Source: Eremomyces bilateralis CBS 781.70
Taxonomy: Eukaryota
Strand: one strand, 5' to 3'
Assembly (NCBI GenBank): GCA_010015585.1
Contig: ML975160.1
Length of the DNA stretch: 64,000 nucleotides
The notes under the pieces were generated by a model. It was given only the letters and a program-made list of their open reading frames with translations. It was not told the DNA's origin and ran no database searches. The translations under genes were made by a program, and so were the position numbers. This document shows, in pieces, positions 20,900 to 57,149 of this stretch (its first letter is position 1; each line of letters starts with the position of its first letter).

Positions 20900-23337
20900 G
20901 GACCAAGTGATGACAATTCGTGCCCGATCCTTCGGCATTGATGACAAGACGGCCCAAGAAGAGCTTGGAAGCCCGTAAAAGCGCGCTTGTACATCGTTTC
21001 CGCCATAGATATCTTCGCTTAGGCAGCAAACAAGTCTCCGAGATTCCACAGAGTGTTAAGCGCTGGACTGTATCTCGCAACGACCTCTGTTCCCATCGCC
21101 TCTTCGTATCCATGCAGCGTTTGCATGTACATATTCTCTGCCTTACCCTGACTACCTTGGTTTGCGTAGAGCAGGCCCAGGTTGTTGATCGTACCGAGCG
21201 TCGAGATGTGCTTCGGTCCAAGTGCCTCCTCCTTTCCTTGCAACGCTCGCATGTACATCTTCTCAGCCTCACCCAGCTTGCCTTGCTTGGCATAGAGGTT
21301 GTCTAGGTTGTTGACCGTGTCAAGCGTCGATGTGTGCTTTGGCCCAAGTGCCTCCTCAGTTCCGTGCAGCGCTCGCATGTACATCTCTTCTACCTCCTTC
21401 AGTTTCCCTTGGTCGGCGTAGAGCAGGCCCAGGTTGTGAACTGCCCATTCAATACCATTCTGTGAAATGCCGCATTTTGATATCATAGATAAACACCTTG
21501 CTACATGCTGGAGGAGTCGTTGCCGTATAACCCACCATTCTTTTATATTATTTCCGGGAACGTGTAACCCGATAAACTTTAGAGTTAGCCTCACAATGTC
21601 ATTATTCCACTCTGGATTTAGAACATGCATCGTCCATGAGTGTACACAGCTATGCATTCTGTACCCTCCTGACTCCACTGAATCCCGTGAGAACGAGTTT
21701 GCTTCCACCAGTCCGTGGTTACACAACACTCGAACCGCTGCAACGAAGTTTTTTTGGTCTTCTGTGAGTTTTCGGATCCATTCTGGATCACTTGAATCGT
21801 TATGACAGGGAAGCTCGAACCAGAGGTCCTGGTTGTCAAAATAAGCCCACAACTGAAGGAACTGAGCCGAAAGTCGGTTCTGTTGTTCCACATGCTTGTA
21901 CGAGATGTTCCATGTGGTGTAGAGCGTTCGATCTTCGTACGAGTTCAGCTCAGGACTTTTCTCTTTCAGTTTCAACCATGATTCTTTATATTGATGAAGG
22001 TACTCAGCCAAACCGGTCGATACTTGATCAAGATATGCTCCGGCGGTCGCAAGTGCAAGAGGGAGCCCGTCTTATTCATTGACGAGCTTGATAGCATCGG
22101 GATCTGTCATCCTAGTTAGTATCCTCTCTATAGGGTCAAAATAATCCTCACCATTGTTCAATCCTTCGCGTCTTGACACGTTCGACAGGATCTTAAGGCA
22201 ATCCTGCACATTCTCCAGCTTTTGGACTGGAATGCCATGGCCGATTTTGACCTGCGACGACCGCGTGGTGATGATGATTGATCCTTGATAAGATTCCAGC
22301 AGGTACTTCTTAATGTCCAATGCCGTCGGATCCGTGTTACCTGGTACCTTGGAATTGTCGTAGTTTTCGTATATGGCCAGCCATCTTACGTTATTTCGGA
22401 GACTCAGCCACTCTTTGACGGCTTCTACCACTTCATCCAAGCTTCCATTCAAATCCACGGCGTTAAGACACTGGGCAGACGGATGCTCTTGGCGTATTCT
22501 CCGGGCAGCGTTCGCAAAGCTTTGCTTCAGAGAGACTTCATCTTTGATATTCAGCCACAAGATCGCTGAGTATCTATCTCTATATCGCTTCGCGTATGCA
22601 ACTGCCAATTGAGTTTTACCAATTCCCCCAAGGCCATGAAGAATAGCAACGCAACGGCTGCCATCGCCTCTGAGCGCCTTGTGTATTTCCATGAGCTCTC
22701 TTTCTCTTGCAACGAAGTGCTCGGTTTCAGCAACATCGGAAAGACTGAAAGGTATCGCGAAGTCTTCGAAGTGACGACCTATACCGGTCAGTACCCCCCC
22801 CACGGTTTCATAATGGAGAACGCCTTACGATTCGATGTATTTTCGATCTCAGCATGAAGCCGTCGAAACACATTATCTCTCCCCTCACCATAGATCGGTG
22901 AAATACTCACGCCAAAAATTCCCAACAACGAATAGACTTTGTCTTCCTCTTTGGTAGTCTCACGGTCCTCGGTCCACGATATTCGTTCCGTGACGCCGAA
23001 TTGAGAGAGGAGCTTTCTTCGAAGTGCCTCGACTGGGATTTCTACAACCTCGCGAATTTGTCGCTCTAGAGATTTCTTGCTCCCAAGCTTCCTACAATCG
23101 TTGGAGAAAAACTCCACCGATTCTGGGGCGATCAGCTCTTGCAGAGTCTAGCCTCGAGTGAACCATCGACTTTTTCGAAACTCGACTTTCCAATATTGGA
23201 AATGCGAGTTGTTAGGGTCCAAAATCGGTCCTGCGACATCCGAGAGGTAGACATAGCATCGTTCTGCATCGCGATACCACCGAAACATGGAGTTGATGGC
23301 TTCTGAGAGCTCGACAAGATTGGTCTTATCGATGCAG
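20900..23337 (-). pseudogene. HET-NB-ARC-TPR NLR, 3' portion, disrupted
   Basis: HET core CIDKTNLVELSEAINSMFRWYRDAERCYVYLSDV and SRWFTRG*TLQELIAP (TGG to TAG at 23148-23150). P-loop HGLGGIGKT, IIITTR, and NE*DGLPLAL (stop at 22072-22074). TPRs of the form NLGLLYADQGKL...ALGPKHTSTL. The 3' end is approximate. Confidence 0.92.
21130..21440 (-). repeat. Tandem 126-bp (42-aa) TPR-coding repeats
   Basis: CCAAGTGCCTCCTC and GCTCGCATGTACATCT recur at 126-nt spacing. Confidence 0.8.
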
Positions 23338-23658
23338 ATGGGATCAATCTAGGCGAACATACCCAGTACGTTCTCCTAATGGGTTAATCCCTGGGACCCC
23401 CTCACCAACCGAGCTCCATTCCCTTTGCGCAATACTACGATTTGCCGCCAGACAAAAGTAGAAGAATAATAATAAAAGCATAGCCATTTCTCAGGGCATT
23501 CCGTATGGATATATATAAGACTAGTTATAACTTGTGGTCGAGTCAATCTGGCCGTCGTCCCAAACAGGCCTCTGGCCTAAATGGGCTCCGCTCTCCATAC
23601 TGACCGAGCCCAATCAGGCTCCTTAACCCAAATAGCCATTTATCGCAGTCCAGTATCC
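23338..23658 (+). repeat. Conserved element left end, copy 1
   Basis: Closely similar to 36460-36791 and 57150-57430, e.g. CAATCTGGCCGTCGTCCCAAACAGGCCTCTGGCCTAAATGGGC is in all three copies. Confidence 0.95.
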
Positions 23659-23714
23659 GTGCCCCATGACCGCCCCTCCCTTGCGCTTTTGCGGTTTACC
23701 AACTAATTAATACC

Positions 23715-23915
23715 ACATCGCCGAGTCCTATTACATATCTACCTCCTCACTTGGAACGCCTTCTCCGATGCCTGCTATCAAACCAAACCGGATTGACGTG
23801 AATGCTGACTTCACCCGGATGGCGACTATCGCCGCTGAGCTGGTCTCAGTAAGGTTCTCAGATAGACAGGCGATGACGACATTATGTTGGTTGACTTGTC
23901 TGAGCGCGTAAATAT
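23715..23915 (-). pseudogene. PNP_UDP (nucleoside phosphorylase) NLR effector-domain fragment
   Basis: NIYAL-QVNQHNVVIACL...SAAIVA...FTSIRFGLIAGIGEGVPS matches the usual HNVVIACLP...FPSIRFGLMVGIGGGVP pattern, but is degenerate and truncated. Confidence 0.75.
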
Positions 23916-24414
23916 TTGGGATTGAATGGGCTGCGAGAAAGCCTGGGATATCTTGCGGCTTCCACACATCTAACTTAGAATAGCTGGCTTGGGAAAACAG
24001 GAGGGTCGAACGGTATGGACTTTACAACGAATGATACGTATTGCATTACCATGCTTAAGTTGTGTGTTGACTTTGCTCTTTGAATTGCTGCGTCAAGAAA
24101 TTCAGAATAGAGAAACACTGAAGAGAAAAGCTGAAGAAGGTGACGATTCATCACGTGCCATCTCCTGGCTGAGATTGGCAGATAACCTGGCCTTGCGGAC
24201 TGCATTTGGCGCCGATAATGGTCTGTCCTTAAACCTCAGTCAATCTCTCAAGACACACAGCTCGTAGCCATGATTTTGTTGTGATACGTGGCCTATCTGC
24301 CTATCTTCCTAGCGATGTGCCCTTCCCCAGATCACCAGTCGGTCAGGTTCACCAATGAAGGAGGAGTAGGTGGAGTCCAGGCTAGTCAGAACAACGTGTA
24401 TTGTGGGCTTTCCG

Positions 24415-24615
24415 GTACCATACCTGCCCAGCCACTTAGCCAGAAGATATGCCGCTTGTCTTCTCCATCGACCCATTTCCTGATATCGTTAAGGACGTTG
24501 ACTCGAGTGCCAGGGATGCAGAGAGGGTCATCTCCTTTCTCCGATGCGTTGAATGTAGCGTTGGGCGCGTAAGGGAGGGAGTTTCGCGGATTGCGATCGT
24601 GTGCAGTCCCGCTAT
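24415..24615 (-). pseudogene. NACHT N-terminal fragment, HET-E-like NLR
   Basis: LPYAPNATFNA...PLCIPGTRVNVLNDIRKWV...IFWLSGWAG breaks off just before the Walker A GKS. Preceded by a CTAAC...TAG intron end. Confidence 0.75.
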
Positions 24616-24640
24616 AGACAATCACGCCGTGTTAGTAAGC

Positions 24641-27116
24641 TTAAAGAGAGATGGTAGACCGAACTTACTACACGTTGAAGTCCCCATCCCATACACGGTC
24701 CATCTGGTTCATTCCTTTTTAGCGCCGGGAGAGGCTTGGTGGCGCCAAGTTAGCGTACTAATAGACTCCAATCACAACGCGGTACGAAAATTACAGCTTT
24801 TGGGCCTTTTTTTCCCGCTCCATTGCTCATGGCAACTCTAATCTGAACAATCGAAGCGATCAACTATGCTTTCGATGCTCCCATCAGCTTCAGACGCCAC
24901 CGCTTCCGATGACGAGGTATCTGAGGATGAGCTCACCACTGAATTTGTATGGAGAGTGCCGTCTGATGCTACCACCGCTGCGGAAGCGGATCCGGAGTCC
25001 CAATTACAGCAACCTCAGGTTGAGCCTGCAACATCCTCCGCTGGATCTCTCCCTACGCCAATTGGACAACCTGGGGATGTCTCCTACATAGCTATTGATC
25101 CTGCTACTAAGAGGCCTTTAGGGCAGCCTGGGACGTACTTTAAAAAGATGCAAGGATACGTCTCATACTATCACTACCCCGAAGCGTTGCTTGATCTCTT
25201 CATTGGCGTCTAAGGCCCTCTCTGCGCTACCGACACCCAGAGTGTATCCTGTGGGACTCCAGGTTGTACTGGCTGCGGGATTTTCCATGGCAATGGTCAG
25301 TCCCTAGACCCAATGCTTCACGATCGCCCTCCCGCTTCCTTCGAAGAACTTGCTGAGCGATGGGATCTTCCGCTTGTTCTTTTCTCCCAGCTATTTGATG
25401 AAGGCATTTATAAGACGATCGCAGAGCACTCCAACCGGTACGCCCAGAGGCATGAAATCTCGATTAGGCCTGTTACCGCCGGCCATATCCGGATATGGCT
25501 GGGCCTTGTCCTTTACATGGGTACCCTTAATATCGCTTCTCGAGGGGATCTCTGGAGTAGGAATGGCCAGCGGCCTCTTCACTGTATCTCTAGGTTTATG
25601 TCCTTTCGAAGATGGAAGCAGATCAAACGGATTATCCACCTCTCTGATCCCGATACAGAGCCGCAGCCGACCTCCGTCCTCGACAAAGTACAACCAATTG
25701 CCTCGCTTTTAGGTGCTCGCTTCAGCCAAGTATATCTCCCCTCAAACTACGTCTCAATCGACGAGATTATGGTCAAGTTTACGGGTCGATCAAAGGAGAT
25801 TGTCTCTATTAAAAGCAAGCCTATCCCTGTTGGCTATAAAATCCTTGCCCTCGCCGATAGAGGCTATGTTTATAGCTTTCTCTTTACCTCAGGAGGAAGC
25901 TTTGATACCGGAGGAAGGAAGGATGCATCATCAATCCATGGTGTAAACTATCAGCCCCCCCATGGATACGAGAATCTTGAGCTTACGGCTACCTCAAAGG
26001 CGGTTATTACCTTGGCAGCCTCTCTTCCTGTCAGTCTCCGCAAGTTTGTTATCTTTATGGATAACTACTTTACCAATATTCGCCTGCTCTCAGTCCTTCG
26101 AAAAATGAGGATTGGGGCCTGTGGGACGACTAGGACGTCGTATAAAGAGTACCCGTTACAGCACTTCAAAGAGGTAAAGGACAATTGCAGATGGCCGCTT
26201 CAAAAGCAGGACTTCCTCTGCGTTCGCGATGTTGCCAGCCTCTTATGGAAGGATCGGGTACTCGTACGTTTCCTCCATACCATTTTTGAGCCAGAAGAGA
26301 ATGATTGGGCACCTCGGAGGCGTCCCGCGACTAGTACAGCTGCGTACCAGCGAGAACTTGATCAAATCTACCCTCCTGGGGTCCACGACATACCGGTTCT
26401 ACAACCCAAAGCTGCCAGACTATACAATAGCTTTATGGGAGGCGTCGATATCGCGGATCAACGCCGAGCTTACTTCACATCGCACCTAATTAGCCAGAAA
26501 ACATGGCATCCTATTCTCTTCTGGATACTCGATACGACTGCTTCGAACGCTCATATCCTCGGTACATGCCAGTTTCGAAAGCAGAATATTAGATACCTAC
26601 AGAGCCTTAAGGATTTCCGTCTACAGCTTGCCTGGAATATGGTCATCAAAGGTATCTCAGATGGTCATGGTCCCCGAGTAGTACAGGGCTTCAATGAGCA
26701 GGAAGGTCCTCAATTCGAGGCAACCGAGGGATCAGGAGATCCGGTAACTCGTACGTACGGCCAAATACGGAGTTCCCGTATCATACTACTCTTAGAAGTG
26801 GTGTTCATCGCCTGGCACGAATTTCAAGAGGGATGCGACGATGGTGTTGGTTGTGTAGGTGGAAAAAGCTAAGGGATAACCAAATCAAGGACCGAAGGAC
26901 CTTCTTTTGCTGTGAGATCTGTGGAGAAGGATTTCCTCTCTGTACTAGTTGTATAGAACCATTCCACAGTCAAAGACCTAGCTAGATACTATTAGATTCC
27001 TCTAACTATGGTAATTGTGTCTATTTACTTTATATGAGGATTGCATACAAATCAAATGGGACACCTTTTTTTTATATATATTTTTTTAAATCCTACTCCA
27101 TTTCAGCTGGCTTTAA
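24641..27116 (+). mobile_element. piggyBac-like DNA transposon, defective
   Basis: Contains a piggyBac-type transposase pseudogene. Candidate TTAA sites at 24641-24644 and 27113-27116, both read inward as TTAAAG. TIR similarity beyond that is weak, so the ends are tentative. Confidence 0.7.
24866..26985 (+). pseudogene. piggyBac transposase (DDD) with C-terminal Cys-rich domain
   Basis: Motifs SIDEIMVKFTGR, KPIPVGYK, FMDNYFT and YNSFMGGVDIADQ. A frameshift near 26755 separates the WCWLC...CCEIC...LCTSC-H domain. The N-terminal part is also interrupted. Confidence 0.85.
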
Positions 27117-27329
27117 GAGCCGCTATGCTGGGTATTTCTATTTTACAGGCGGGCAGCCTCACCGTCTCCGGTGGGTTAGAACTAGATATGGGCAGGGCGG
27201 ACAGTGCGGGGGCCATCGGCCCCGCCTCATCTATACCCAAGGGAGTGCTAAGACTCCCGAACTGGATAGCATCAAACAATTAGGAAAAAACCCTCGGAAA
27301 GACCATAGACAATGGTAGGGGTTCTACAA

Positions 27330-28520
27330 GGAGAAAAGATTAAAGCAGTATAACTCCCGCCTGGGATGCTTTATTATTAGGCTTTGTTTGTTTCGGGACG
27401 TTGGTACTATCCGTCTTCACACGGTGTCGGTGGAGACTTACTGTTGATGTTGATCGGAGATACAACATCGGTGGTAGGTTAGGTGAGTTGGGTGGCGGTC
27501 TTCAGTTGCCTGAATTGGCTTAGAAGACCTGTTTGGACCAATAGTTTTGTTGCTTTTGGGGCGTTTGCGGCGGTTCCTAGGAGGATCCGAAGGTCTGTAG
27601 GCTGGCCGTCAGGCCAGAGTGTGTCACGTAACTGGTTAAAGTTCGGGCATTCCGTAAGGATGTGCCTTGGGGTCTGGTCTGTACCGCAAGTACAGAGGGA
27701 CGAATCGGCTGCGTTGATGCGGGAGAGGTAGCTGGCCAGGGCCACCTTCCCGGAGCGAAGTTGTGTCAGAACTGATGATTGGGCCTTGTTCAGAGATCGA
27801 TGGATCTTGAGTAACGCGCGCGATGGTTTCGGGGCTAAGCGGAAGAGTGTTCGCCTGTTCGGCCTCTTTCGCCGCGTTCCCATTCGGTCGCCCACTCGGT
27901 GGCGGTGCAGTCGCGCGTGTCTCTTCTCGTAGCAGAGAGGAGTGTTAAGTGGTCCTCCGGTAGGGAGGCCCTAGGCCCATCGCAGCTTATCCCCATCCAT
28001 CCTGTAGCTCGTTTTGCTAGTTCGTCAGTTTGCTCGTTGCCCAGGATGCCGGAGTGGGAAGGGATCCAGTGGAAGTGCACCATGTATCCCGCGCTCATGA
28101 AGAGTTGGTGGCGGAGGAGGATGTCTATCACGTAGTATTGTCCTGAGTGGATTTGGGGGCTTAGGAGCGCTTTGAGGGCTCCCTGGCTGTCGGCGAAGAT
28201 GTAGATGTGGGTGGCCTCTGATGGAAGTGGGATTCGGCGTTGGGGGATCAAGGCAACCGTCCTTCTCTTGATTTCCGAGTGCTGGTCTGCCATGTCCAGC
28301 GCTAATTGGATCCCACGAAGTTCGGCTGCGTAGATGTTGCTCACGGACCGGGGGCCCATGTAGTTCATCCGCTCTTGACGTCTGGTTGGGAAGTAGGCAG
28401 CGGCTCCTACTTGTCCGTTTAGATCACTTCCATCGGTGTAAAACACGAGTTCGGTGCCGTAGGCCTTCTCATTGTGTTCCCTGGTTGCCATCTCATCAGA
28501 GTGGGCGATACGGGCATCCG
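27330..28520 (-). mobile_element. 5'-truncated LINE (Tad1-like) remnant with RNase H and C-terminal CCHC
   Basis: Motifs VFYTDGS, YAAELRGI, IFADSQ, HWIPSHSGILGNEQTDELAK, LTQLRSG and CTCG-QTPRHILTEC. Frameshift near 27880. The ends are approximate. Confidence 0.85.
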
Positions 28521-28844
28521 GCTTGAGTGTTCATGGCGGCCAGTTCGCCGATCAAATGTGACATCTTGATAAGTAAGAACTCGTAATTCTTCCAAACTAG
28601 GCTAAGTGCTTCAGGGGGTGGTGCTAGCGCGGCCATGCCAAGTGGCATGAAAACCTAGTAAGGGATGCATGCATCAAATCTGTAATAACAACTGGCGTGA
28701 TCAATCTTGGCAAGCCCCCTCCTTTTCCAGATACTGGTTCCCTCGCAGCACTTTATAAGACCGGCCAGAAATCCCCACTCCATGTTTCGTAAATATCACT
28801 GCCGATGCCGGAGTGACAGTCCATTACGAAGATCGTGCAAAACA

Positions 28845-31800
28845 ATGAAGTGGCGATTTCTGAAGCTCGGCAAGCAAGGCCAAGACAGGAGCAAGGTCGA
28901 GGAAGATTCCACTAGTGGCAGCTTGGCGCGCTCCCCGCCCAAACGATTCGGCCTCTTCAAGCTCCCCACCGATGAGAGCGTGGCCGATACGAACAATCAT
29001 GAGCACTACTACCCAGTCAACATCATTGCAGTACATGGCCTGAATGGTGGTGCGTACACCACATGGACCCATGATAATGGGACGTTTTGGCTTCAAGACT
29101 TCTTGCCAAAGCTTCTGCCTGGATGTCGCGTTTATACCTATGGATACCCTTCTCAGTTTGCCTTCAGCAAGTCATTAGCAGAGGTACAGGAGTACTCGCG
29201 ACTACTTTTGAGCTCAATAAGAGACGAATACGAAAATTGGGATCTGGTACTTTCAATCACATTGTCCGGTACCCGTTAGAAGAGCATATTAATCTGATGT
29301 TATCGAAGGGCTCTCGTACTATCATCTTTGTCTGCCATAGCCTCGGAGGCATTGTTTTTAAACAGGTTGGTTTATCACCTCCTGATATCGACTCCTTACC
29401 CAGTGCTGACTGCTGTAGGCTCTAGTGATTGCTCATGAAGATGACGTGGTGTATGGGGAAATTCTTAAATCCATTGCTGGTGTTGTCTTCCTCGGAACAC
29501 CACACAATGGCAGCGGCGTTGCGAATTTTGCAAATACCGTTGGCAAAATAATCAATGCCATCATAACAACAGCATCTTCTGGAGTTCAAACTAGAGCCAT
29601 CAGAACCGACCTGTTCAACTACCTCAAATACGATTCTAAAGCTCTCAAGGACCTCGATGTTTCAGTTCGAAATCGATTCCATGATTTAACTGTGGTCTCA
29701 TTTTGCGAAACTGAGCAGGAGTCTCCGTTCCCTTTCCCGGTGAGGCTCAACTCTGGCTTTATTTGGTCATGTTACCTTAGACCGACTGGAGGAACCACTG
29801 ACACTTTAGCAGATTGTCGATAAATACTCGTCAACTTTGGGCATACCAGGAGAGGAGATCATTCCTCTAGGGGAGAACCATCGGAGCATATGTCGATTCG
29901 GTGGTGAGACAGAGAGCTACAAAAACGTTTCCCGATCCCTGCGAAGAATCGCAAGAAACGCTCTAGCCAGAGAGCAGGCGTTCAAGCGAACAAGCATCCC
30001 TTCCTCTGACAGGAGTGAGTCGTTCTGGTTGCGAACCAACGTCCCAAGTGCCTAACACCTGCTAAGCTCTCGATGATTCCGAAAAGACCTGTTTCAAACA
30101 ACTCGGAGTCTTTGACGTGGCGGACGTCAAAAGGATATCACCCTCACCAGCCAAGGGCACCTGCCAATGGATTCTAGGCCATCCTAGGTTCGTTTGCTGG
30201 CTTGATCAAACGGAAAATACCCTTCTGTGGCTTACAGGCCGTCCCGGCTGTGGTAAGACGATAATGTCGCTATTCTTGGCTAAACAGTTAGAAGAAGCTC
30301 GGTCAAATCGAGCTCCGAGCAATGTTTGCGTATTCTTCTGCAATGACAGACTCAGCGCAGAAGACATCTTGAATGGATTAATATTTCAGATCATCAGTCG
30401 TCATCGTTCACTCATCCGACATGTGAAGAGAGAGTTCGAGATTCAAGGCCAACACATGTTTCGGTCATTCACAACACTTTGGAATCTACTGGTCAAGATT
30501 GCAACAGATCCAAAATCTGCCACAACTTCTATCATAATTGATGCATTGGATGAGTGTAAGAAAATCACTCGCGATAATCTTTTGCTCTCGATTCGAGACT
30601 TCACGAACACATCAAGCGATTCAACGGGAAGCAAACAGCATGTCAAATTTATTTTGACTGGCCGCCCTGAGCTAGTTCATCTCGAGAAGAGCGTCGGCAA
30701 CGTCGCTGAGCACGAAATTGTAATTGACGAAGGTCAAACAGGCTATGACAGAGACCTACGGATCTTCATCCAACAGAGACTGGACGAAATTTGTCAAAGA
30801 CACAATTTGTCCCACGAGACGATGGAATTGCTTCGTCAATCACTCTACTCCAAAGCCGGCCAAACCTTCCTGTGGGTACATATGGTGCTCGAGTCATTAG
30901 AGAGCAGCCTGCTTGCGTCAAAGAAGGACATTCAAAACATCATTACGCAGATTCCACCGGCCCTGGAGAAGACGTATTTGTGCTTCTTATCCGAAATACC
31001 TTCTAAGTACATAAGCAAAGCTCTGATGCTCCTCAAGCTTATAGTGGGAAGCCTAAGACCTTTAACGTTAGATGAGATCAACATCGCCTTCGCAATAGAT
31101 GCGACTCATCGCACGTTAGGAGAAGTTACATCGAACTGTCAACCTGCTATTTTACTCACCATCCAAGGTATATTGGGGCCCCTGGCCAGAGTATCGGACA
31201 ATAAAGTGATGCTAGTCCACCCATCGGCCAAAGAATTCCTTTTACAACGTAAGAGCGCCGGTGGCGACTTTCCCGCGATATACGCGATTAGCGAGGAGGA
31301 ATCTGCGGCTCTCACTGCATCCGCATGTATGCACTACTTGCTGCTCAAGGACTTCTCTGTGGATCTTTTCGAACTTGAAACTTCGCCTACCGAGTCTAAT
31401 TCCGACTACTCTGATATGATCGAGGGCTCGGTGGTTTCCATACCATACGGCAGCTTTTGGAACGAAGGCACAGACGACCTCGATGCCTTTGGCTTGTTCA
31501 AAGACCCTGGTCTCCTTGATGCGGAGATATGCCAAGCCCTCGTTTCAAAATACGCTCTCTACCAGTATGCATCTCTACATTGGACTGAACATTTCGCCCT
31601 CTGCGAAACTACTGCACCTGTGGAGCTAAGAGAAACTGCCAAGAAATTACTTGATACAGAAACTCTTAACTGTTCCAACTGGCTGCGTGTCTTTTCCGCG
31701 GAGTTCGATGCAATTGGCCGCAGCATCCCTAACAAGCCTGATAAAGTCACTCTGGCGGCTTACTTCGGCCTCCACGAGACTCTTAACGATTTGGTCAGTA

Positions 31801-32876
31801 GTGACAAATCAATTCCCCCCGTACAGAGGGACCAGGCCTTGTTCTGGGCTGCCCATGAGGGCCATGTTAGGAATGTTAGCATACTCCTTGGAGTAGATGC
31901 AGATCCGAATGCTCGGAGTTCTAACAGGGAGACGGCACTCATCGCTGCTGCTCGGAACAACCATCTTAACTGTGTAGTCACCCTTTTGGCAGACCAACAG
32001 ACTCATCTGAACATTCGAGGCCCGAAGGGGCGGACAGCGTTGGCATTTTCATGTAGCAGTGGACACGACCAGGTTGTCAAAGAACTGCTAAGTCGAAATG
32101 ATTGCATGACTGAAGAGGAGGACGATAGTGGGGCCACTGCGCTATTTTGGGCCATTGGAGGTAGCTACATCTCAATCGTCTCCGAGTTGGCGAATCTTCC
32201 GACAGTTGATATAAACCATCGTGACAAGAAAGGCCGCACGCCCTTGTCCTGGGCAGCGGGAGATGGAATGGAGGAAGTCGTGAAGGTATTGCTCAATATG
32301 CGCGATATCGACTCCAACCTGGAAGACTCCAACGGACGATCACCTCTCTCCTGGGCAGCTGGTAACGGCTGCACAGCGGCAGTCAGAGTTCTCCTTCGAA
32401 ACAATGAGGTGGACAAGGCAAGTCTTGACAAAGACCAGAGGAATGCAATCTCCTGGGCGAGTGCAGGTGGCCACTCGGATACACTGCGGATGCTTCTCAA
32501 TCGCGGATGTCCGGGAGTCGATATCAAGGATGTGGATGGCTGGACTCCTCTGGCATGGGCAATTCAAAATGATTCTCCGGGCACTGTGGAAGTACTCCTT
32601 TCGAGCGGGTCAGTCAACCTAGAACAATCGGATCATAGTGGAAGAACACCACTATTTTGGGCGGTTGAATACGGCCATATTGAGGTTATCAGGATACTTT
32701 TGCGCGAAGGCGCTGACCCAGAAAGACAAAGCCATAAGGGCGAAACGCCACTCATTAGGGCAGAGAAAGTCGGACGAGCTGATATCTCAGACGAACTTCT
32801 CAACCATGTGAGGCAAGGAGGCAGCATGACGCATTTCGAGCAACGAAGTCAGGTACCAAGTGCGATGCGTAGGTGA
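28845..32876 (+). CDS. NLR-like protein: SesB-type alpha/beta hydrolase, NACHT, ankyrin repeats; apparently intact
   Basis: Hydrolase motifs IIAVHGLNG, FVCHSLGG and FLGTPHNGS. NACHT motifs GRPGCGKT, IIIDALDEC and FLWV. About ten ankyrin repeats (GRTPLSWAA). Four GT-AG introns between about 29247 and 30066. Confidence 0.9.
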
Positions 32877-32924
32877 CTTGGTCTCAAGGTGGGGTTAATT
32901 GCGGTTAAACTATTGTTAAATTCG

Positions 32925-33037
32925 CGGGTAGAATTACGATCTCCGTGCCGAGAATAAACAGTAGTCCTATAGATGGTTTCCGCAACCGCTGGCACCAATG
33001 TCCCGCATAGGGCTAGTAAAGACGCTTTTAAGAACAT
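32925..33037 (-). pseudogene. N-terminal fragment of a secreted histidine acid phosphatase
   Basis: Signal peptide MFLKASLLALCGTLVPAVA followed by VYSRHGDR (RHGxR motif), after which similarity is lost. Confidence 0.55.
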
Positions 33038-33847
33038 GATGAATACTCCGTAGCTTTAATACTATAAAACTCGAACCAATAAATTCGATCCGAGGAGTAG
33101 GGCATATTTCCTATTAGACCATGATAATTTCCTGTAGATAGCCCTGCTAATGAAAAGATCACAAGCCAACGATTAACGCATTTAACTGAGTGTACCTATG
33201 CTTCTATCTGGACTTCTAGCTCCTCAAACTTCTGGCGTAGCGTAATCAAACCCGGATGTGAGGGTTCACGATTAGTGGAATCGGAACAGTTTGAACGTTA
33301 TCGAATTGCTAGAGAAAAGAAGAAGAAGAGGAAAGAACCTCTCTCCTGGCGGCGTATCTACTTCCGCACCTTTGCAATAACACAGACATTAGCCTGAGGC
33401 CATACTATATAGCATAGTAACATGAACAAAGGCAAACTCCTCCAGGCCGCCAGGGCAACAACTAACAGTCTGGGCGCATAGCCCTTATCTCAGCTGGGAC
33501 TCAGCCGGCAGATGATTCCCCCTGCTAATGTGGCGTTCCGCTATACCCGTAAAGGCCCAGCCGCTTCTCTTAGCTCTATCCACCAAAATTCGACCAATCA
33601 TATCCCATAAAAGCAGTGGGAACCACTGCCGTCTAAGAACCTTCTGCATCGTTTGTGTGAACGTGTGGTTTGAAAACCGACTTTTGTTATATACGCAGAG
33701 AGTGACTCCCAATACAATTTGTTTTATACGCGTTCTTGACATTTTCCCTTCCTAGGCACGTTCTCCACGCCGAATATAATATATAGTCCAACTTTGGGAC
33801 CTATCCGAGCTTTCCACATTGCAAGACCGTGTCATCTTGTTTTCAAT

Positions 33848-36245
33848 ATGTCCCTCGCATTATCACTCTCAAGCGAATTATCAGACATACCGACGAGCGA
33901 CGTATCTTCCGTACCATCTTCGCCTATCGAATCTCTTCCATCGTTACCAACAACTCCACAAGCCCGTCGAACTTCTCCTACGCGATCTCCGACCCCATAT
34001 CGGAAGTTTAAACAGTACCGGTATGTGGGAAAGCAGAATGATGGCGGTCAGTTCAATAAGGTGCGCGAAACATTGGTACTTTGGCGCAGGCTCCGCATCA
34101 ATTTCAAGAGTTTTCTTCGGCTTTGGTTGCTATCTAAGAAGTCCCACGGCAACTTGAGCAGAGATATAAGGACTGAGCAGTTCCGCGAGGTCTTTGCAGA
34201 GCAGGACGTACGCTGTATTCTCGGCGAGATGCCCTCTAGTTCCTATGATTGGAAACAGATCTTCACCGAACTTGAGGGGCTATCAGACCATAGATATTTC
34301 AATACATTTATGTCTGAAAATGCCCATGAGTGGTGTATTGATCTAGATGAGGTTCGAGGCATTATCCAGGAACAGGCACCAGAATGGTTCAAGTTCCTAG
34401 ACCTACTGCTTCGAAACCGTCGGAGTACAGAACCCTTAGTACGAGAGCAACTACCGAAAGGCATCATTGGGCAGATGTATATGATAACCGCGGTGGTATG
34501 TCGTAGTCGGCAGCGCAAGACCTCAAACGCGTTCGCAAAGCATCTTGGGCTTTACCTACTCTCTAGTGGGACCAAACGCAGAGTTATTGAAACGTTTGCA
34601 GGTATGGGACTCTGTGATACATACCATCATATCAATCTTGAAACATCAGGTATGGCGGAACACGCGAAGGCATCTAAATATACAGTCTTCCATCCTTCCA
34701 AGGTTGCTAATTATATTATAGAAACATCTCCCCCGCCTGGCTAGGGATCCGCAGACAGTCATTGTTTATGACAATTTCAATTTCAAAGATACCGTACGAG
34801 AGCAAGTTGTCGGCTCGAACCATGTTATGCGAAACATGACAACATGACTGTTGGTAAAGAATCCACATCTACCGCGTAGAGGCCGGTTAAGATCACAGTT
34901 CAGACCTGATAACCAACTCCGTCTTGAGGACATATGCAATGCGCCTGGGCTTGATCGTGGCAGGATTAGCACTCAGATGCATACCTTCTTGGTCTATGAG
35001 GCCATTAGACACGTACACCAAGAAAAGGTCGATGCGGCGTTCAAGAAAGATCTATCTTTGGTTCCCTGCTACCCGGAAATTAAGCGATTACAGGCGAAGG
35101 GATATGCCACCGAACTCCACCATCTCCAGGCTGCTCCATTTGACGAAGGAACAATTGACGGAACATATCAAGTTCATACTAATATATGGCTTGACCGGCT
35201 CCGCTTCAAAAGCAATCCTCCAAGTACCGACTTCGACGAGCGACTCTGGTTAGTCTGGAGCGACCAAAAAACAGCACAACATATTCGAAGCTTAAAATCT
35301 GCTCAACGGAATGCAACCTTACCCTTCGACCGGCGAGAATGTATGCTAGGTCCATGCGCGCTTTTCCACGTCCTCCAGAACCTGGTCTTGACAATTATTC
35401 GAACACATTTCGAAGGGGAAAAGGGCACGTCCGATGCAACGCTTCTATCAGACATTCTCTATTTGGGTCGGAAAGGATACTCGCGTGAATCCCCCAAATT
35501 TTATCTGTTTGATCCGTTGCTAAAACAATCGTTCTCGGCACGGATTCTTATGGTATAGTATCATGTGCTTACCAAACGGGGCCATTTACAGAGGGCAGGT
35601 ATGAACGTCACTATTGGAAGTGAGGTTCTAGATGCTGTCATTGAAAGATTAGGTCCGGTTGAGCTGGCCTCATCTATCCAAGAAGTCGTAACATTGACTT
35701 TCTCTCACGATGCGTGGACAGAGAACAGATATGGTGTCGAGTTTAAGAATATGAGCCGCCTCCTTCCGTTGATCGGGATCTTTCTTACCCTTCGGCGAGC
35801 GGTTAAGACGGGAGATATTGGATGGATTAACAGGCTGATTGATCCTTTAGCCATCATATTCTATGCTACTGGTCAACATAAATATGGTGACGAAATGCTT
35901 CATCTTCGCTGGATGTTGTTAGATCGTGTTTCGGACGAGGCACTTCGGATCGTAATTCTATCGTCTAGCCTTGTGAACATTCAAGGTAAAACGGATCAAT
36001 TTAAACCGATTGATATTGCCCCTGAACACGTCAATTGCGCATACAAGATTGATATCAAGATGTTTAAGAACTCTACACACGATGCGGATAAAACCTTTGG
36101 AAGAGTGGCACTACTCAGCCATTCCTTTACCAAGATTCGCGCAGCCTGGGAAACCTCAGTTGGCATCGCCCCTACCGATCGACATACGAATAAAGATGAT
36201 CGTCAAGATGTCTTCAGCCGTGCACTCTACCTCTACCTGAAATAT
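33848..36245 (+). pseudogene. DUF6589-like, TE-associated gene with internal stops, truncated at the 3' end
   Basis: Motifs GLYLLSSGTKRRVIETF, VYDNFNF, WSDQKT, ALFHVLQN, GDIG, GQHKYGDEML and LVNIQG...DIAPEHVN. Stops at about 34742, 34846 and 35556. Family call is from memory of motifs. Confidence 0.6.
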
Positions 36246-36459
36246 GTATTGCAAAAGTTTGTCACTACCAGGCGTCCTGGATATCACTCAGGAGTTAAAG
36301 TTTGGTACGTGTTTAGCTCGGAAAATACACATTACATTGAGTAACCGGCCACAATATTTTCCGCGCGCCAAAAGAGGATCCTGATCTGGCTCCTTCACAT
36401 AAATCAAAGACAGCAGTTTTCTGCTGTCCTTGATGCTAGATCGACCGGAATAGATGCAG

Positions 36460-36876
36460 ATGGGATCAACCTAGGCGAACATACTCAGTACGTTCTCCTG
36501 ATGGGTTAAACCCCTGGGACCCCCTCACCCACCGAGCTCCATTCTCTTTGCGCAATAATACTACGATTTGCCGCTAGGCAAAAGTAGAAAAATAATAAAA
36601 GCATAGCCATTTCTCGGGGCATTCCGTAACTATGGATATATATATAATGCTAAGTAGTTATAACTTGTGGTCGAGTCAATCTGGCCGTCGTCCCAAACAG
36701 GCCTCTGGCCTAAATGGGCACCGCTCCCCATGCTGACCGAGCCCAATCAGGCTCCTTAACCCAAATAGCCATTTATCGCAGTCCAGTATCCATACTGTTC
36801 TAGCCTCACGAAACAGACCCAGGCAACTTGTCGCAAGATGCCCCTGTTGATTTCAATGCCAATGAACAATCCTATC
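36460..36876 (+). repeat. Conserved element left end, copy 2
   Basis: Matches copy 1 to about 36791 and copy 3 further, through CCCCTGTTGATTTCAATGCC...CAATCCTAT. Confidence 0.95.
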
Positions 36877-37381
36877 GGCCACCACTGCAGGTGTCCTTTC
36901 TAGTCCCGCCTCCACACAGGACAACCGACAAATCATATTTTGAGCGCAGTGACCATGGTAGGCGTTTCATCCGCAGTTAGCAGTTTTGATGGACTGAGGT
37001 TAGCTCTCCGGACTCATCAGCACAGTGAATATAATGCTTCATCGTCGTCTAGATAGTGGCTCGGGAAGCGGCCTGCTATTACCCAAGAAGGAGGAATATT
37101 GTCATCTTTAGGCCATTCTCCGGCACAAATAAATCTGTAGGGAAAATGTCCTGGAATTTCGCAGGTCTCTTGAAGGGGTTTTACAGGTTATTTTCCCTCA
37201 GCTGGGACCTACGTGACCAGAAACCTCTCACTTGTTTGAAGCCTCAAGCTTCAGTTTGAACTGGTATTTCGAGCTCTTGCACTTTTCACCTTTCATGAAC
37301 GACCCTCTTGCCAATTATAACTTGAAGCTTGCGCCTGCCACCTGCTATCCTTATGCGACGTCTACATCTTAAGCGCTCATT

Positions 37382-38476
37382 ATGTCGTCGTCCCCGAAAA
37401 CGTCCGCGACGCCCTCCAGAACCCCCGATCCTCTGAATCCGCTACAAGGTTCTACAATGCCTTCACGCAATCGGTCACTAGGTCGCGACGTCCATATCTA
37501 CGATGCTAACGACCGCACTACTGTTCTCGGTGGCTTAATCCTTACAAATGGCGTCACGAATGCCAACTTCTACTCAATGGTGGAGATTATCGTCTTGTTC
37601 ATAACTGATTTCGAACTACAAAACGAAGAGAGCACCAAGATCCAAAAGACTGACGATCCGCTTCGGCCGGGGAATTACTACATTCATGCCGCTGGTAAGT
37701 GTCTACAGCCATCTTATCATACCTAGGCTAATCTTTGCTCCGAATATAGGTTCTTTCTCGGTTAACAACGAGTCGTGGCTAGTCCGTACAATATCTCATG
37801 CCAGTGGAACTCGTACCCAGTGTTTCCGCGATGCTGTACGCTCACGAGATCGTCGGTGCGTTATATCTGGGGAGGTGGCAATCTCGGCGCAATTCGACCG
37901 CTGGGACGGCTTTGAGGCCGCGCACATATTTCCAATAGCCTACGAAGGTCATTGGAAGGATCATGGCTACGACCGCTGGATTACTATTCAACCAGACAAC
38001 GGCGGAGCAATCAACTCAGTACAAAACGGGTTATTGCTTGATTCTTCCGTACACCAACTCTTTGACAATTACATCTTCTCTATTAATCCAGACGTATGTA
38101 TGTTATACTCTTGTAGCGGTATTCTGGCTAACTAACATTATTCCAGGACGATTATAAGATTGTGTTCTTTGACCTTGATAGAAAAAGTCTTGCCGGCAAG
38201 AATCTCGACCGACAGCTACTTGATGATCCTCAACGGCCTATTGATCAGCTACTACGATGGCATTTCAGGCAGGCTGTTCTAGCAAATATGAGAGGCGCTG
38301 GCGAGCCTTACTTTGAGCATGACTTCCCTCCTGGCTCCGACATAGTTGGCGATATACTAAGTGGCTCGAAGGCTGCTGAAAGGATGGAGTTTGAGTTATT
38401 CAATCGCCTGGCAGCTCAAGTTCCAGTGCACGGCATATCTCAAAGTCAACAGAAGGCTGGGCAAGACTCCGGGTGA
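37382..38476 (+). CDS. Fungal HNH (HNH_2-type) endonuclease
   Basis: Motifs RDRRCVISG, FEAAHIFP, NSVQNGLLL, HQLFD and LLRWHFRQAVLANMRGAGE. Two GT-AG introns at about 37695-37750 and 38093-38147. Confidence 0.85.
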
Positions 38477-38550
38477 GGGCTTGGCGGCGCTAAACCCGAA
38501 ATGAGGGAGACTAAACCGGAAGAGGGAAGTTACCAGCTCCTCAGTCTCCC
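38451..38550 (+). repeat. ~105-bp dispersed repeat, copy 1
   Basis: GGGCAAGACTCCGGGTGAGGGCTTGGCGGCGCTAAACC...CCGGAAGAGGGAAGTTACCAGCTCCTC. Related copies at 49394-49497 (inverted) and 55834-55939. Confidence 0.85.
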
Positions 38551-38965
38551 TACTTAACTAAAGATGCTGGTAGAACGTCCTGAGAATTCTCAGGTTCCTA
38601 GAGGGGGTTTTGCAGGATATTTTCTCTCAGCGCTTTCATCCTTGTGCCAAGACACCCATAGTATTGATGTCTGTGTTACTAGTAGTCGACCAATCAATCC
38701 CTTCCCTGTGACGCCCGATATCTTAGGGGCACCTCTGCCTCCTTGTTGGGACTTTTGTGTCATTGATACGTCCTTTGCTGCCGCCCAAATCTTTGAGGAG
38801 ACAATCCAATCGGTTACCGGTCCTAAAAGCAAGGCACAGCCAGAATGGCGACTTCTTCTGCTGTTGATGTTCTGGACTACGGACTGGAACTGGGCTCCTA
38901 CTACAACACTTCTCTAGGAAGAAGCTGACCGCGCTCCTACACCTTCATTTTCCCGCAATTACATT

Positions 38966-41298: not shown

Positions 41299-42353
41299 TC
41301 GGCGGTGTTTCTGCTAACAAATAGCGAAGTTGACAAAACGATGCAGTACGCTCAGGTTTCATGGGCGATGAAATGACGAATAAGTCTTTCGAAGCATAGT
41401 TCTAACTAGTTTCATTTTATGGATAGGCTACCGTACTAGATCTTCCTTTCCATTCCCTTTACCTTAGGTCACGTCGAATGGACATCTGGATTTCCTAGAG
41501 TATCCGCTAGTAGTAATTAGTGGTTGAATTCCCTCTGCTACCTTGCCTGCCCACTGAATAAGGGTTCGTAGCACGCGATATAGAAAGTGATATCGCTATA
41601 ATTGGGTGGTAGTTTATTGTCGTAATTGAGGGTTTGGTTAGTTCCCTGGTTTGGTTTAGTGCTGCCCGACTGGGTAGGTCTAATTATCTGTTGGAAATCA
41701 GTGTTTATTACTTGGTCATCACACAAGATTCCTTACCTTATTCTGTATCTTACGTAATCCTGGGTATATCTACATTGCAAGGTTTTCTACCTTTGACAAA
41801 TACAAGTAATTAATGGAACTTGGTAATCGCAGACCTTGCGCATCCAGACCGTGTCAATATTATTCATATTATTCGTATTCGTTTCGGACCTCTAGGATCC
41901 TCATGCTTTACCAGCTTGATTGTAATGTGCTTGTAGCATAGGCAGCATAGCTCACTTAGCTTATTCAGTCTCCAGAGCCCCCGGTTGTGTATATAGTCTG
42001 GGTAATTCTCGTCTTCAGTAAGTGTTTGGATAAGCTTTCTCTATCTCGTCCGGCCGTCACTACCCATCTTCCTCCTTAGGGCTTGGAGGTTGATTTTCTC
42101 AGCACCAGATTGAGAAGAAGGCAATATTTAATGAACGGCCAATGGCGCACCGCTCGCACTGAAAGACGGAGGAGGCAATGTTCCAGGACTTGGAGACCGG
42201 ACGGTGGGCTCGTGTTGCTGAGTGGCACTGTGATGCTACACAGCTGCCAGCTTATTCTCGTACTTCAGTGCGATCCCCTTCACGCTGCGTCAGTGACCAT
42301 TGGATCTTAGTTGTACTTCACACCGTGTACATGGATTGCAGCATCATCGGCTA

Positions 42354-42552: not shown

Positions 42553-42734
42553 GCGGATCTGGGAAAATACCGTAGAATGGGGCGCAATCTAGCGGCCAAT
42601 ACTAGAGTAGGAATTCGTTGCTGAATCCACCTCCTATTTCCAACATTGACAACGTACGACGCCTTGAATAATTAACAATGAAGGACCCGAGCACTATGGT
42701 ACCGCATCACTTCAGCACTAGCCGCCTCATATCC

Positions 42735-49701: not shown

Positions 49702-49745
49702 AAGTCCAGGGTGGCTATTTAGGCAAATACAAGCCATTCCGGCTT

Positions 49746-57142: not shown

Positions 57143-57149
57143 GATGCAG

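Follow-up and report, generated by a model that had tools for sequence, protein, structure and literature searches.

The window, as we call the whole 64,000-nt stretch of Eremomyces bilateralis CBS 781.70 DNA analysed here, holds a HET gene whose two parts are separated by 40.6 kb of non-HET DNA. The locus raises two questions: what was inserted into this gene, and whether the insertion point, among the codons that the HET domain conserves best, was a target or an accident.

The split HET gene and its repeated core

Both parts of the host gene are read from the minus strand (Table 1). The insert adjoins the HET C-terminal part at GATGCAG, positions 23331-23337 (CTGCATC when read in the coding direction, on the minus strand). 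Across this copy the minus strand reads ..DPICI/DKTNLVELSEAINSMFRWYRDAERCYVYLSDV.. (the slash marks the start of HET homology, which lies at the core), and the residues upstream of the core (..stop-IDPI) are derived from the insert. The missing HET N-terminal part (..FWVDTCYI) picks up at 63916, beyond the fourth copy of the core, where the minus-strand reading of 63916-64000 is NKAGYNKIEFCGEQAARDGLEHFWVDTCYI, followed by a stop. In this fourth copy a CpA to TpA transition has changed TGC to TAC, and so Cys to Tyr.

The full HET-NB-ARC-TPR homologue P0061 was aligned to the window by tblastn. Residues 54-81 map to 63992-63909 with 86% identity, and the next alignment places residues 76-252 at 23348-22818, continuing from D82 at 23330 with zero residues lost. 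Since the two HET halves join in P0061 in this way, the break falls exactly at WVDTC-C-I / DK and carries a 7-bp direct repeat. Taking out the insert together with a single core restores the host gene exactly, the direct repeats matching the target core. Note that the 7-mer by itself is not rare (21 copies of GATGCAG in the window versus 10.3 expected); the significance comes from the copies at the four junctions and from the flanks these have in common. Rfam gave zero RNA families across the entire window, and the target is therefore not a 5S or tRNA gene. Two other readings of the junction were dropped: for a Helitron, the Rep/helicase gene and the CTRR end are absent and a 7-bp repeat is present, and for an intron, GT is absent at the junction.

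Both HET halves are 62-87% identical to PF06985-bearing HET-NB-ARC-TPR proteins, which identifies the split domain as a HET domain of HET-E type, and 7621 of 8000 scored candidates reached E ≤ 1e-10. The HET C-terminal fragment alone gave zero Pfam matches at E ≤ 0.01. The C-terminal part of the host gene, 62-68% identical to P0061 and P0067 by tblastn, is a pseudogene with one frame change near 22818 and three in-frame stops; in the tblastn alignments, residues 76-252 lie in frame -3 with one stop and residues 249-837 in frame -2 with two.

Tandem units and the captain pseudogene

The 40.6-kb insert is not a single element. It consists of three related units of 13.1, 20.7 and 6.8 kb (E1, E2 and E3), arranged head to tail and bounded by four junctions, each of which (4/4) carries GATGCAG or GATGTAG. 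The 5' ends of the units are 84-91% identical across 320-434 bp. At the other end the units have 45-65 bp in common: positions 57083-57146 of E2 match 63849-63912 of E3 with 97% identity across 64 bp, and the E1 counterpart (∼36395-36452) is similar to the others across its last ∼45 nt. The interiors carry unrelated cargo ORFs in all three units (Pfam) and are themselves unrelated, except for an HNH_2 gene segment found in opposite orientations in E2 and E3; E2 also holds FAR1-like remnants. Unrelated cargo between homologous ends, a shared core at every junction and a single orientation together form the pattern of tandem accretion.

Further signals at the unit ends were scored against randomized sequence. 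The score of an imperfect terminal inverted repeat of 25-29 nt was reached by 26 of 2000 shuffles for E3 and by 201 of 2000 for E2; the repeat of E1 matches at 8/9 nt (632 of 2000 shuffles), and significance is thus confined to E3. The weakness of the terminal inverted repeats counts against the reading preferred below, although such repeats occur in some Starships only. When the attB and attP arms were compared, 20 of 40 positions agreed at the E2/E3 junction (reached by 31 of 20,000 permutations), in favour of that reading, and 14 of 40 at the E1/E2 junction (2266 of 20,000, not significant), which speaks against it.

A tyrosine-recombinase (“captain”) gene lies in E2. Two E2 ORFs match PF11917 (E values of 1.9e-12 and 5.2e-18), which identifies the DUF3435 domain of Starship captains, and all seven full-length captain homologues (7/7) align by tblastn to 39419-41268. 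The captain limits in Table 1, near 39050 and 41330, are by-eye estimates from frame translations, the homologue alignments spanning 39419-41268 only. At least two in-frame stops (..EPEP-stop-YTEF.. and ..TLDV-stop-AAFL..) fall inside the aligned regions, a point that counts against the reading preferred below. The same seven homologues gave no captain match in the window outside E2, and E1 and E3 are therefore without one. The captain reads inward and starts ∼2.6 kb from the E2 5' end, behind the DUF7881+HNH_2 gene, and so is not the first gene of the unit. A second captain copy, ∼88% identical, also exists. Because a HMMER scan returned 51 matches only, the best non-self match having 36% identity, the captain is not assignable to a named Starship family; the captain fragment compared with longer proteins gave zero matches.

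The initial annotation had placed the target at the Cys-Cys-Ile codons of HET, with CTGCATC as the core, and the seamless abutment of the two HET halves in P0061 bears this out; it had also set the element beside known Starship targets, and the DUF3435 matches found by Pfam agree with a Starship-like element. Its statement that one locus was visible was too modest, given four junctions bounding three units, and its picture of one element has to be replaced by a tandem array of three units whose sole captain gene is a pseudogene.

We consider it fairly probable that a DUF3435 recombinase inserts small Starship-like elements site-specifically at CTGCATC in HET, and that three of them have accumulated in one HET-NB-ARC-TPR gene. 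Under this proposal, a DUF3435 tyrosine recombinase would mobilise a lineage of such elements and would integrate them in a single orientation at the 7-bp CTGCATC, which in HET-E-type HET domains corresponds to the codons ending WVDTC-C-I. Three diverged members would have piled up head to tail at one site of this NLR gene. Every integration would recreate the core on both sides, so that later arrivals would be able to use the identical site. The E2 captain is by now dead, and the captain-less E1 and E3 were probably mobilised in trans. Because GATGCAG is common, the recombinase probably recognises bases beyond the core; the likeliest additional signal would be a stretch of ∼15 bp towards FWVD, in which 9/15 positions are the same in the target and at the element 5' end.

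Table 1. Features of the split HET gene and of the three inserted units (positions in the window).
Feature	Positions	Strand	Basis or remark
Host gene, C-terminal part: rest of HET from ..DKTNLVELSEAINSMFRWY, NB-ARC, TPR	20953..23330	-	tblastn, Pfam, translation
TPR	21022-22071	-	Pfam
NB-ARC	22075-22824	-	Pfam
Core (direct repeat) copy 1, GATGCAG	23331..23337	+	Junction of HET C-terminal half and E1
Unit E1, 13,115 bp, without captain	23338..36452	+	Pfam, shared ends
E1 conserved 5' terminal region	23338..23658	+	91% identical to that of E2, 90% to that of E3
E1 piggyBac-like DDE_Tnp_1_7 ORF	25214-26869		Pfam
E1 RNase H ORF			Pfam
E1 intact NACHT-ankyrin NLR ORF	30066-32873		Pfam
E1 DUF6589	34848-36341		Pfam
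Core copy 2, GATGCAG	36453..36459	+	E1/E2 junction
Unit E2, 20,683 bp, with captain pseudogene	36460..57142	+	Pfam, shared ends, tblastn
E2 DUF7881+HNH_2 gene	37373-38132		Pfam
DUF3435 tyrosine-recombinase (captain) pseudogene, C-terminal C2H2-like zinc-finger region	39050..41330	+	Pfam, tblastn
E2 sacsin-like ORF	45406-47904		Inside 7-kb segment between 197-nt inverted repeats
E2 conserved 3' terminal region	57083..57142	+	E3 and E1 counterparts alike
Core copy 3, GATGCAG	57143..57149	+	E2/E3 junction
Unit E3, 6,759 bp, without captain	57150..63908	+	Pfam, shared ends, tblastn
E3 HNH_2/DUF7881 gene, inverted orientation	59430-60421	-	Pfam
E3 DUF4419 ORF	61926-63413		Pfam
Core copy 4, GATGTAG (mutated)	63909..63915	+	Junction of E3 and HET N-terminal half
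Host gene, N-terminal HET part (..NKAGYNKIEFCGEQAARDGLEHFWVDT-), continuing past the window edge	63916..64000	-	tblastn, P0061 residues 54-81

HET sites beyond the window

Runs X1 and X2 represent one sample. As this is probably the source sample, their contigs lack independence from the assembly. One single-copy X1/X2 contig matches HET up to 23313, continues with 17 differing letters, and then has the core and the unit 5' end from 36453. The 17 letters stay in frame and encode DKSSSA; the contig thus represents a second HET gene (CIDKSSSA..) with the identical site and orientation, read from a single contig junction. Three further contigs with HET paralogues are uninterrupted, having the consensus ..TCCIDKSYN and GATACAG instead of the core. 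The depth of the unit 5' end is 4-5 times single-copy. The locus was present in the probable source sample only; no empty allele of it was seen, and run X3 yielded six short pieces and next to no cover. Indirect evidence of insertion polymorphism comes from the pairs of broken and intact forms of other HET genes in public data, described below.

The second paralogue bears on whether HET is merely incidental, that is, whether one element landed here by chance and its relatives then used the resident ends, as any site-specific element is able to, the true target being a short motif present in many settings. We think this unlikely. The frequency of the 7-mer in the window would suit it, as would the weak similarity of the E1 arms to HET, and, of the four 5'-end junctions observed, three belong to one array and may not be independent choices of HET. 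Against this, a clearly different HET paralogue has the identical junction and orientation. By our own estimate HET accounts for ∼1-2% of some 10^4 GATGCAG sites in a 36-Mb genome, so two independent chance landings in HET would have odds near 10^-4. Public HET fragments, moreover, break at this codon far oftener than at its neighbours.

For this last comparison, 191 short relatives (44-142 aa) of a HET N-terminus were ranked and the best 120 used. Among these 120 best fragments, 32 leave HET right after WVDTCC(I): eight end ..CCI, like the window's HET N-terminal frame, nine end CCT, CCTI or CCM, 11 run into a common non-HET tail, (T/I/S)IQ(T/S)HHRRQ.PTKRV.YAAENGG, and four carry other tails. 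Four clusters at 90% identity pair a broken with an intact form (P0244/P0293, P0223/P0294, P0180/P0296 and P0230/P0297). The PF06985 profile spans the site in intact P0293 and stops at position 62-67 of 146 in broken P0244 and P0246. The common tail looks mobile, the tails being more alike (78% identical) than the HET parts (64%; 21 pairs, 7 sequences). It has no similarity to the window, including the unit ends; a search of the ESM Atlas with the tail alone placed it nearest to HET-named clusters at scores of 0.82-0.84, below the tool's interpretable level.

The public hot spot could have another cause, such as assembly or gene-caller breaks at a conserved motif, an unrelated transposon family, or a rearrangement process, in which case the evidence on the element would be reduced to this genome's two loci. 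Contigs of ∼0.5-2 kb are the source of many fragments, and for those ending CCI or CCT the contig ends may be responsible; the motif is common to many paralogues (WVDTCCIDK is present in 71 matches among 120 long HET homologues); and the conserved tail is unrelated to the window's ends. Another 14 fragments, ending ..INSMFR, form a second truncation peak, which is accounted for simply by mutation of the TGG codon to a stop. At the WVDTCC(I) break, however, the next codon (GAY or AAY) cannot become a stop by a single base change. A cut at a contig end would give I, not T, M or a common tail of 25 residues, and the tails are without a GT-type intron start, as far as can be judged from their residues. 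At least eight of the 32 broken forms sit on contigs between 56 kb and 1.7 Mb long (P0196, P0224, P0239, P0245, P0247 from Amniculicola lignicola, KAF2007874.1, P0223, P0285 and P0202 are examples), and four have the near-identical intact partners listed above. We regard such other causes as quite unlikely.

Two models without the motif region, P0062 and P0088, were rejected as insertions, since they are better explained by short introns that the gene prediction placed so as to bypass a defect; the odd residues of P0088 are a shifted reading of DGLQYFW, and neither model was accepted as evidence. In JGI metagenome contigs, two exact-pattern scans found the unit 5' end at 0 loci, and a search of viral contigs found nothing. 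Fungal contigs in three prokaryote bins (L001-L012) have HET copies intact at the site, and the common tail is absent from them. Two of five intact HET sites in unrelated contigs have the exact core and are unoccupied, which counts against site-specific integration.

The public hot spot at the identical codon may reflect the same kind of element as that in the window, to judge from the protein sequences. That several recombinase-driven lineages with unrelated ends home to the WVDTC-C-I codons of Pezizomycotina HET genes, the window family among them, is a tentative proposal to which we give somewhat less than even credence. The family-level targeting suggested by the initial annotation gained a second HET paralogue, the 32 of 120 public breaks and the four intact partners, and is set back by the unrelatedness of the commonest tail. 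Its proposed search for HET genes broken at DTC/CID found the 32 fragments, and that for the element's ends in JGI metagenome contigs came back empty.

Very improbable is a history without transposition, in which HET paralogues recombined ectopically at the conserved motif or repeats were misassembled: the genome does have HET paralogues at ≥ 80% identity and three repeated 5' ends that could mislead an assembler, but paralogue recombination would give a chimeric HET and not halves that fit one homologue seamlessly and are parted by non-HET DNA with conserved ends, and contigs bridge both the E1/E2 junction (record 4, from X1, spanning 33338-36480 with 0 differences) and an E2/E3-type junction (record 8).

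Relation to known mobile elements

According to passages in PMC11162782 and bioRxiv 10.1101/2021.12.13.472469, Starships of the Voyager, Enterprise and Arwing families target 5S rDNA; they carry a DUF3435 captain, and their direct repeats, 6-16 bp long, correspond to a motif in a conserved, multi-copy gene whose copies are individually dispensable; their strand-specific insertion breaks the gene copy, and tandem and nested insertions are known. The same passages describe the targeting of a single 5S variant in Macrophomina. The window elements likewise split a multi-copy gene at a repeated core, in one orientation and in tandem, and resemble the Macrophomina case in that occupied sites read GATGCAG and uninterrupted paralogues GATACAG. 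They differ from 5S Starships in that the target is a protein-coding motif of an immune/cell-death family, not an RNA gene, and in that the units are small (6.8-20.7 kb), the captain is dead and not the first gene, and two units are captain-less.

Passages in bioRxiv 10.1101/2024.06.28.601215 describe Hephaestus as a generalist with the target TTAC(N7)A, and Tardis as having a 9-11 bp repeat, CTACGGAGTA, with the genomic feature behind the motif not identified there. In both, as in the window elements, the direct repeat mirrors the target core, and bases beyond the repeat are also needed, as they probably would be here. Tardis shows that a long repeat may stand for a genomic motif, other than 5S, that is over-represented; here that motif is formed by HET codons. 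Starships seem to choose niches in the genome, and those described in passages of PMC11162782 comprise 5S rDNA, AT-rich or transposon DNA, and short motifs used by generalists. Full-text searches of the Starship literature returned no description of HET as a Starship target, HET and NLR genes appearing in the text returned only as cargo, and neither GATGCAG, CTGCATC nor the first bases of the units occur in the PMC11162782 supplement up to table S10. The HET site is best read as a novel target niche of Starship-like tyrosine-recombinase elements.

If several lineages do home to HET, this would be the first protein-coding family to serve as a dedicated landing site for Starship-type elements, and the HET family would be a multi-copy safe harbour comparable to 5S rDNA. 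Each landing would also disable an allorecognition or immune effector able to oppose spread via hyphal fusion. A niche in the most conserved HET codons would link the elements directly to the fungal non-self/cell-death machinery and would help to account for part of the HET/NLR pseudogene load; whether mobile elements disarm barriers to their own horizontal spread would become a directly testable question.

Bacterial integrative elements and genomic islands pile up in tandem at a single tRNA or tmRNA attachment site. The window array is similar in its tyrosine recombinase, its short core regenerated on both sides, its unrelated cargo and its captain-less members, which would have moved in trans. 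Bacterial islands usually restore the 3' end of the target gene, whereas the split here falls mid-domain and inactivates the gene.

Cryptons are fungal tyrosine-recombinase transposons and named relatives of Starships (passages of PMC11162782). The window units are like them in size (a few kb to ∼20 kb), tyrosine recombinase and short direct repeats; unlike them, the recombinase here matches Pfam DUF3435, the Starship captain domain. In passages of the same source, typical Starships measure tens to hundreds of kb, and starfish is described as discarding elements < 15 kb. If the HET site is such a niche, HET halves split at WVDTCC/I would be a sequence signature for small elements and for those without a captain, both of which are dropped by current pipelines. 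In the window, E2 (20.7 kb) lies above the 15-kb floor of starfish, and E1 (13.1 kb) and E3 (6.8 kb) lie below it.

The host gene and the tandem array

The core GATGCAG occupies 23331-23337 on the + strand and reads CTGCATC on the minus strand. Minus-strand translation across it gives ..DPICI DKTNLVELSEAINSMFRWYRDAERCYVYLSDV..WFTRG*TLQEL.., which covers the centre and C-terminus of a HET domain of HET-E type; the residues directly before CI (..*IDPI) derive from the insert and not from HET. The N-terminal half of the gene was located at the far end of the window, where the minus strand from 64000 to 63909 reads NKAGYNKIEFCGEQAARDGLEHFWVDTCYI and then stops. Residues 54-81 of P0061, a full-length HET-NB-ARC homologue, align with 63992-63909 and residue 82 resumes at 23330. 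No residue is missing, and the host gene is therefore split exactly between WVDTC-C-I and DK. CTGCATC is found on both sides of the insert, the right-hand copy now being GATGTAG (Cys to Tyr). Placement of an insertion at the HET Cys-Cys-Ile codons by the initial annotation is borne out by this exact split and the flanking copies of the core, but the inserted structure is richer than the one then pictured, consisting of three related mobile units (E1, E2 and E3) in tandem.

Three copies of one 5' end are present in the window (at 23331, 36453 and 57143), each opening GATGCAG ATGGGATCAAYCTAGGCGAACATAC and sharing 84-91% identity over 320-434 bp. Among the 3' ends, 57083-57146 and 63849-63912 are 97% identical, and that of E1 is like the others over approximately its last 45 nt (..CAGYTTTCTGC..AGATCGA..TA). 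From these related ends at the junctions, the order is therefore HET C-half, core, E1 (13,115 bp), core, E2 (20,683 bp), core, E3 (6,759 bp), core and HET N-half. All three units share a single orientation, and their interiors are unrelated with the sole exception of a DUF7881+HNH_2 gene, carried by E2 and E3 in opposite orientations. Contigs from two public sequencing runs (X1 and X2) bridge the E1/E2 junction with 0 differences, and an E2/E3-type junction is bridged too. Note that X1 and X2 are probably the source sample of the assembly, and bridging should therefore be considered a check of the assembly and not independent evidence. Depth of the unit 5' end in both runs is ∼4-5 times single-copy. 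Bacterial integrative elements accrete at one attachment site, and the build-up of E1, E2 and E3 resembles this.

Decay of the host HET gene goes beyond the split: it has one frame change and three in-frame stops. Changes include TGG to TAG at 23147-23149 (WFTRG*TLQEL) and, at 63912 in the right-hand core, TGC to TAC, both TpG to TpA, of the kind made by repeat-induced point mutation. Differences among copies in the X1/X2 contig comparison are in the main transitions. To the left of the HET gene lie housekeeping genes (ClpB/Hsp104-like, thiolase, polysaccharide deacetylase, UDP-glucose dehydrogenase and chitin-synthase-like).

Captain, cargo and repeats of the units

The only recombinase gene of the array is the captain (the DUF3435 tyrosine recombinase of Starships) in E2, where two ORFs match Pfam DUF3435 (E 1.9e-12 and 5.2e-18). 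All seven full-length DUF3435 homologues (7/7) align to 39419-41268 on the + strand, reading away from the E2 5' end. Due to stops inside conserved stretches of the alignment (..EPEP*YTEF.. and ..TLDV*AAFL..), the E2 captain gene is dead. The C-terminus has a C2H2-like zinc-finger pattern common to some homologues. Relatives amount to 51 matches at E ≤ 1e-3 among 1.84 billion representatives, the best non-self match having 36% identity; judged by sequence similarity, the lineage is an isolated one. A second captain copy, ∼88% identical, lies elsewhere in the genome (X1/X2 contigs). Comparison of full-length DUF3435 homologues with the window found no captain in E1 or E3, which retain the unit ends; these would be non-autonomous relatives mobilised in trans. 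Relative to the Starship plan in excerpts of PMC11162782, E2 is alike in having a DUF3435 gene, direct repeats and cargo, but unlike in its small size, its captain ∼2.6 kb in and behind another gene, and its weak inverted terminal repeats.

By Pfam and ORF content, E1 carries a piggyBac-like transposase, RNase H, a NACHT-ankyrin NLR and DUF6589; in E2, 197-nt inverted repeats enclose a sacsin-like ORF; and E3 carries DUF4419. One NLR, intact and of NACHT-ankyrin type, thus arrives with E1, and another, the HET-NB-ARC-TPR host gene, is destroyed by the array. The E2 and E3 copies of the DUF7881+HNH_2 gene are 73% identical over 674 nt, and depth of this region in X1 and X2 is ∼4.4 times single-copy, like that of the unit 5' end; the gene may be a regular passenger or helper of the element family. 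Behind the conserved 5' end of E1, 23660-27500 has a depth of 2.5-4.5 times single-copy; here E1 probably contains a separate, multi-copy transposon as a nested insertion. The 7-kb E2 segment between the 197-nt repeats may likewise be a nested element. Both short direct repeats of the 5' region are largely kept across the three units and could be candidate subterminal protein-binding sites.

Features of the host gene and of units E1 to E3
Feature	Coordinates	Strand	Remarks
TPR repeats	21022-22071	minus	Pfam; same strand as HET C-half
NB-ARC	22075-22824	minus	Pfam; same strand as HET C-half
piggyBac-like DDE_Tnp_1_7 ORF with zinc-finger tail	25214-26869		within multi-copy stretch of E1
NPHP3_N/NACHT + ankyrin-repeat ORF	30066-32873	+	E1; 936 aa, uninterrupted; single-copy depth
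Direct repeats, conserved 5' region	36531-36542 / 36736-36747		ACCGAGCYCMAT
Direct repeats, conserved 5' region	36603-36616 / 36765-36778		ATAGCCATTTMTCG
DUF7881+HNH_2 (PF25324+PF13391) gene	37373-38132	+	near E2 5' end
Inverted repeat pair, 67 nt, 91%	39692-39758 / 41893-41959		E2; one arm within captain coding region
Inverted repeat pair, 197-nt, 87%	42357-42549 / 49504-49698		E2; flanks 7 kb with sacsin-like 833-aa ORF
DUF7881+HNH_2 (PF25324+PF13391) gene	59430-60421	-	E3; inverted relative to E2 copy

A further public run (X3), filed under another organism code and almost devoid of the rest of the locus, includes a 102-kb contig that matches 36422-36458 (the last 31 nt of E1 and 6 core nt) apart from 2 differences. 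Another fungus may thus have a related element in which this 3' terminus is conserved.

Likely recognition of the HET site

Of 21 copies of GATGCAG in the window (10.3 expected), just those at the junctions are used, and the target must therefore consist of more than this core. Of the first 15 bases beside it, 9 are common to the element 5' end and the HET N-side (in codons, *-V/I-D-P-I-C-I in the element versus W-V-D-T-C-C-I in the target), and the tblastn alignment of HET runs on into element sequence. With 20 bases taken on each side, the E2/E3 junction agrees with the reconstructed target at 20/40 positions, a value reached in 31 of 20,000 permutations; agreement for the E1/E2 junction (14/40) was not significant by permutation. 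The similarity of the arms hints at recognition by a tyrosine recombinase whose half-sites would flank a 7-bp crossover region, with conservation higher on the FWVD side.

To look for other occupied sites, X1 and X2 contigs were compared with 21500-41499 at 80% likeness. In one contig, present in single copy, the match to the HET gene runs to 23313; 17 letters unlike the 17 of the window follow, after which the contig joins 36453, entering the core and then a unit 5' end. Spacing is preserved, and the coding strand of this stretch translates as ..C I D K S S S A (E L S E A I N S M..), which makes the contig another HET gene, entered at an identical core and with orientation unchanged. The site is uninterrupted in three more paralogue contigs (consensus ..T C C I D K S Y N..), where GATACAG replaces the GATGCAG of the occupied sites (consensus agreement 0.79, a pointer only). 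All four visible 5'-end junctions lie in a HET site (two loci) or behind another array unit. On the best-supported reading, HET is probably a preferred landing site and no accident. Safe harbour, attack on allorecognition, or both are candidate reasons for the choice, and arrival of an NLR in E1 while a host NLR is destroyed fits either.

Niches described in excerpts of the Starship literature (PMC11162782, 10.1101/2021.12.13.472469, 10.1101/2024.06.28.601215, PMC13562431, 10.1101/2025.11.25.690456) are 5S rDNA, AT-rich or transposon DNA, TTAC(N7)A-type motifs and, for Tardis, an over-represented 10-mer without explanation; HET/NLR was found there in a cargo role only and not as a target. The core was not found in the PMC11162782 supplement up to table S10. 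Voyager-type 5S rDNA targeting, as it appears in those excerpts, is the closest parallel: in both cases the gene hit is conserved, multi-copy and individually dispensable, insertion is strand-specific at a motif within it, and a resistant variant of the gene also exists.

HET genes broken at Cys-Cys-Ile in public proteins

HET genes broken at Cys-Cys-Ile, as envisaged by the initial annotation, were sought in a protein collection (sequences of 44-142 aa) using the first 81 residues of P0061, ending ..FWVDTCCI. Exit points were scored in the best 120 of 191 matches: I-(D/N/Q)-(K/Q/R) follows the motif in 85, the motif is missing in 3, and 32 break exactly at WVDTCC(I). Eight of the 32 end at ..WVDTCCI, as does the HET N-half of the window because the E2/E3-type 3' end supplies TAA; seven end at ..CCT, one at ..CCTI and one at ..CCM. 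Eleven share the non-HET tail (T/I/S)IQ(T/S)HHRRQ(C/R)PTKRV(A/V)YAAENGG.., and four have other non-HET tails. Remaining end points are sparse, except that 14 of the best 120 are short HET fragments ending at ..INSMFR. The codon after ..INSMFR is TGG (Trp), which a G-to-A change converts to a stop; a stop directly after CCI is unreachable by any single base change.

The source contigs of at least eight broken forms measure 56 kb to 1.7 Mb (one form is from Amniculicola lignicola CBS 123094), and contig ends are therefore no explanation for them. A broken form clusters with an intact one at 90% identity in four cases (P0244/P0293, identical at 76/77 residues before the break, P0230/P0297, P0180/P0296 and P0223/P0294). 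In broken forms, Pfam matches HET no further than profile position 62-67 of 146; in the intact one the match spans the site. For seven tail-bearing sequences (21 pairs), mean identity is 78% in the tails versus 64% in the HET parts, the tail being the less similar in 3/21 pairs; such a contrast is expected if diverged HET genes each acquired the same mobile sequence independently. No similarity to this tail was found anywhere in the window. The family-level targeting suggested initially has gained a second HET gene hit in this genome and a public hot spot that is real at the protein level; the cause of the hot spot and its link to DUF3435 elements we infer.

Typical ascomycete HET-E-type domains are also encoded by L005 (G001:C52), L007 (G001:C244), L003/L006 (G003:C1) and L002 (G002:C50), contigs from three prokaryote bins labelled Deltaproteobacteria, Methanobacteriaceae and Verrucomicrobiae (one HET contig is 425-kb); these bins contain fungal DNA. 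The shared tail was not found in them, and their HET copies are intact. Among the HET sites of their fungal contigs, 2/5 have the exact core.
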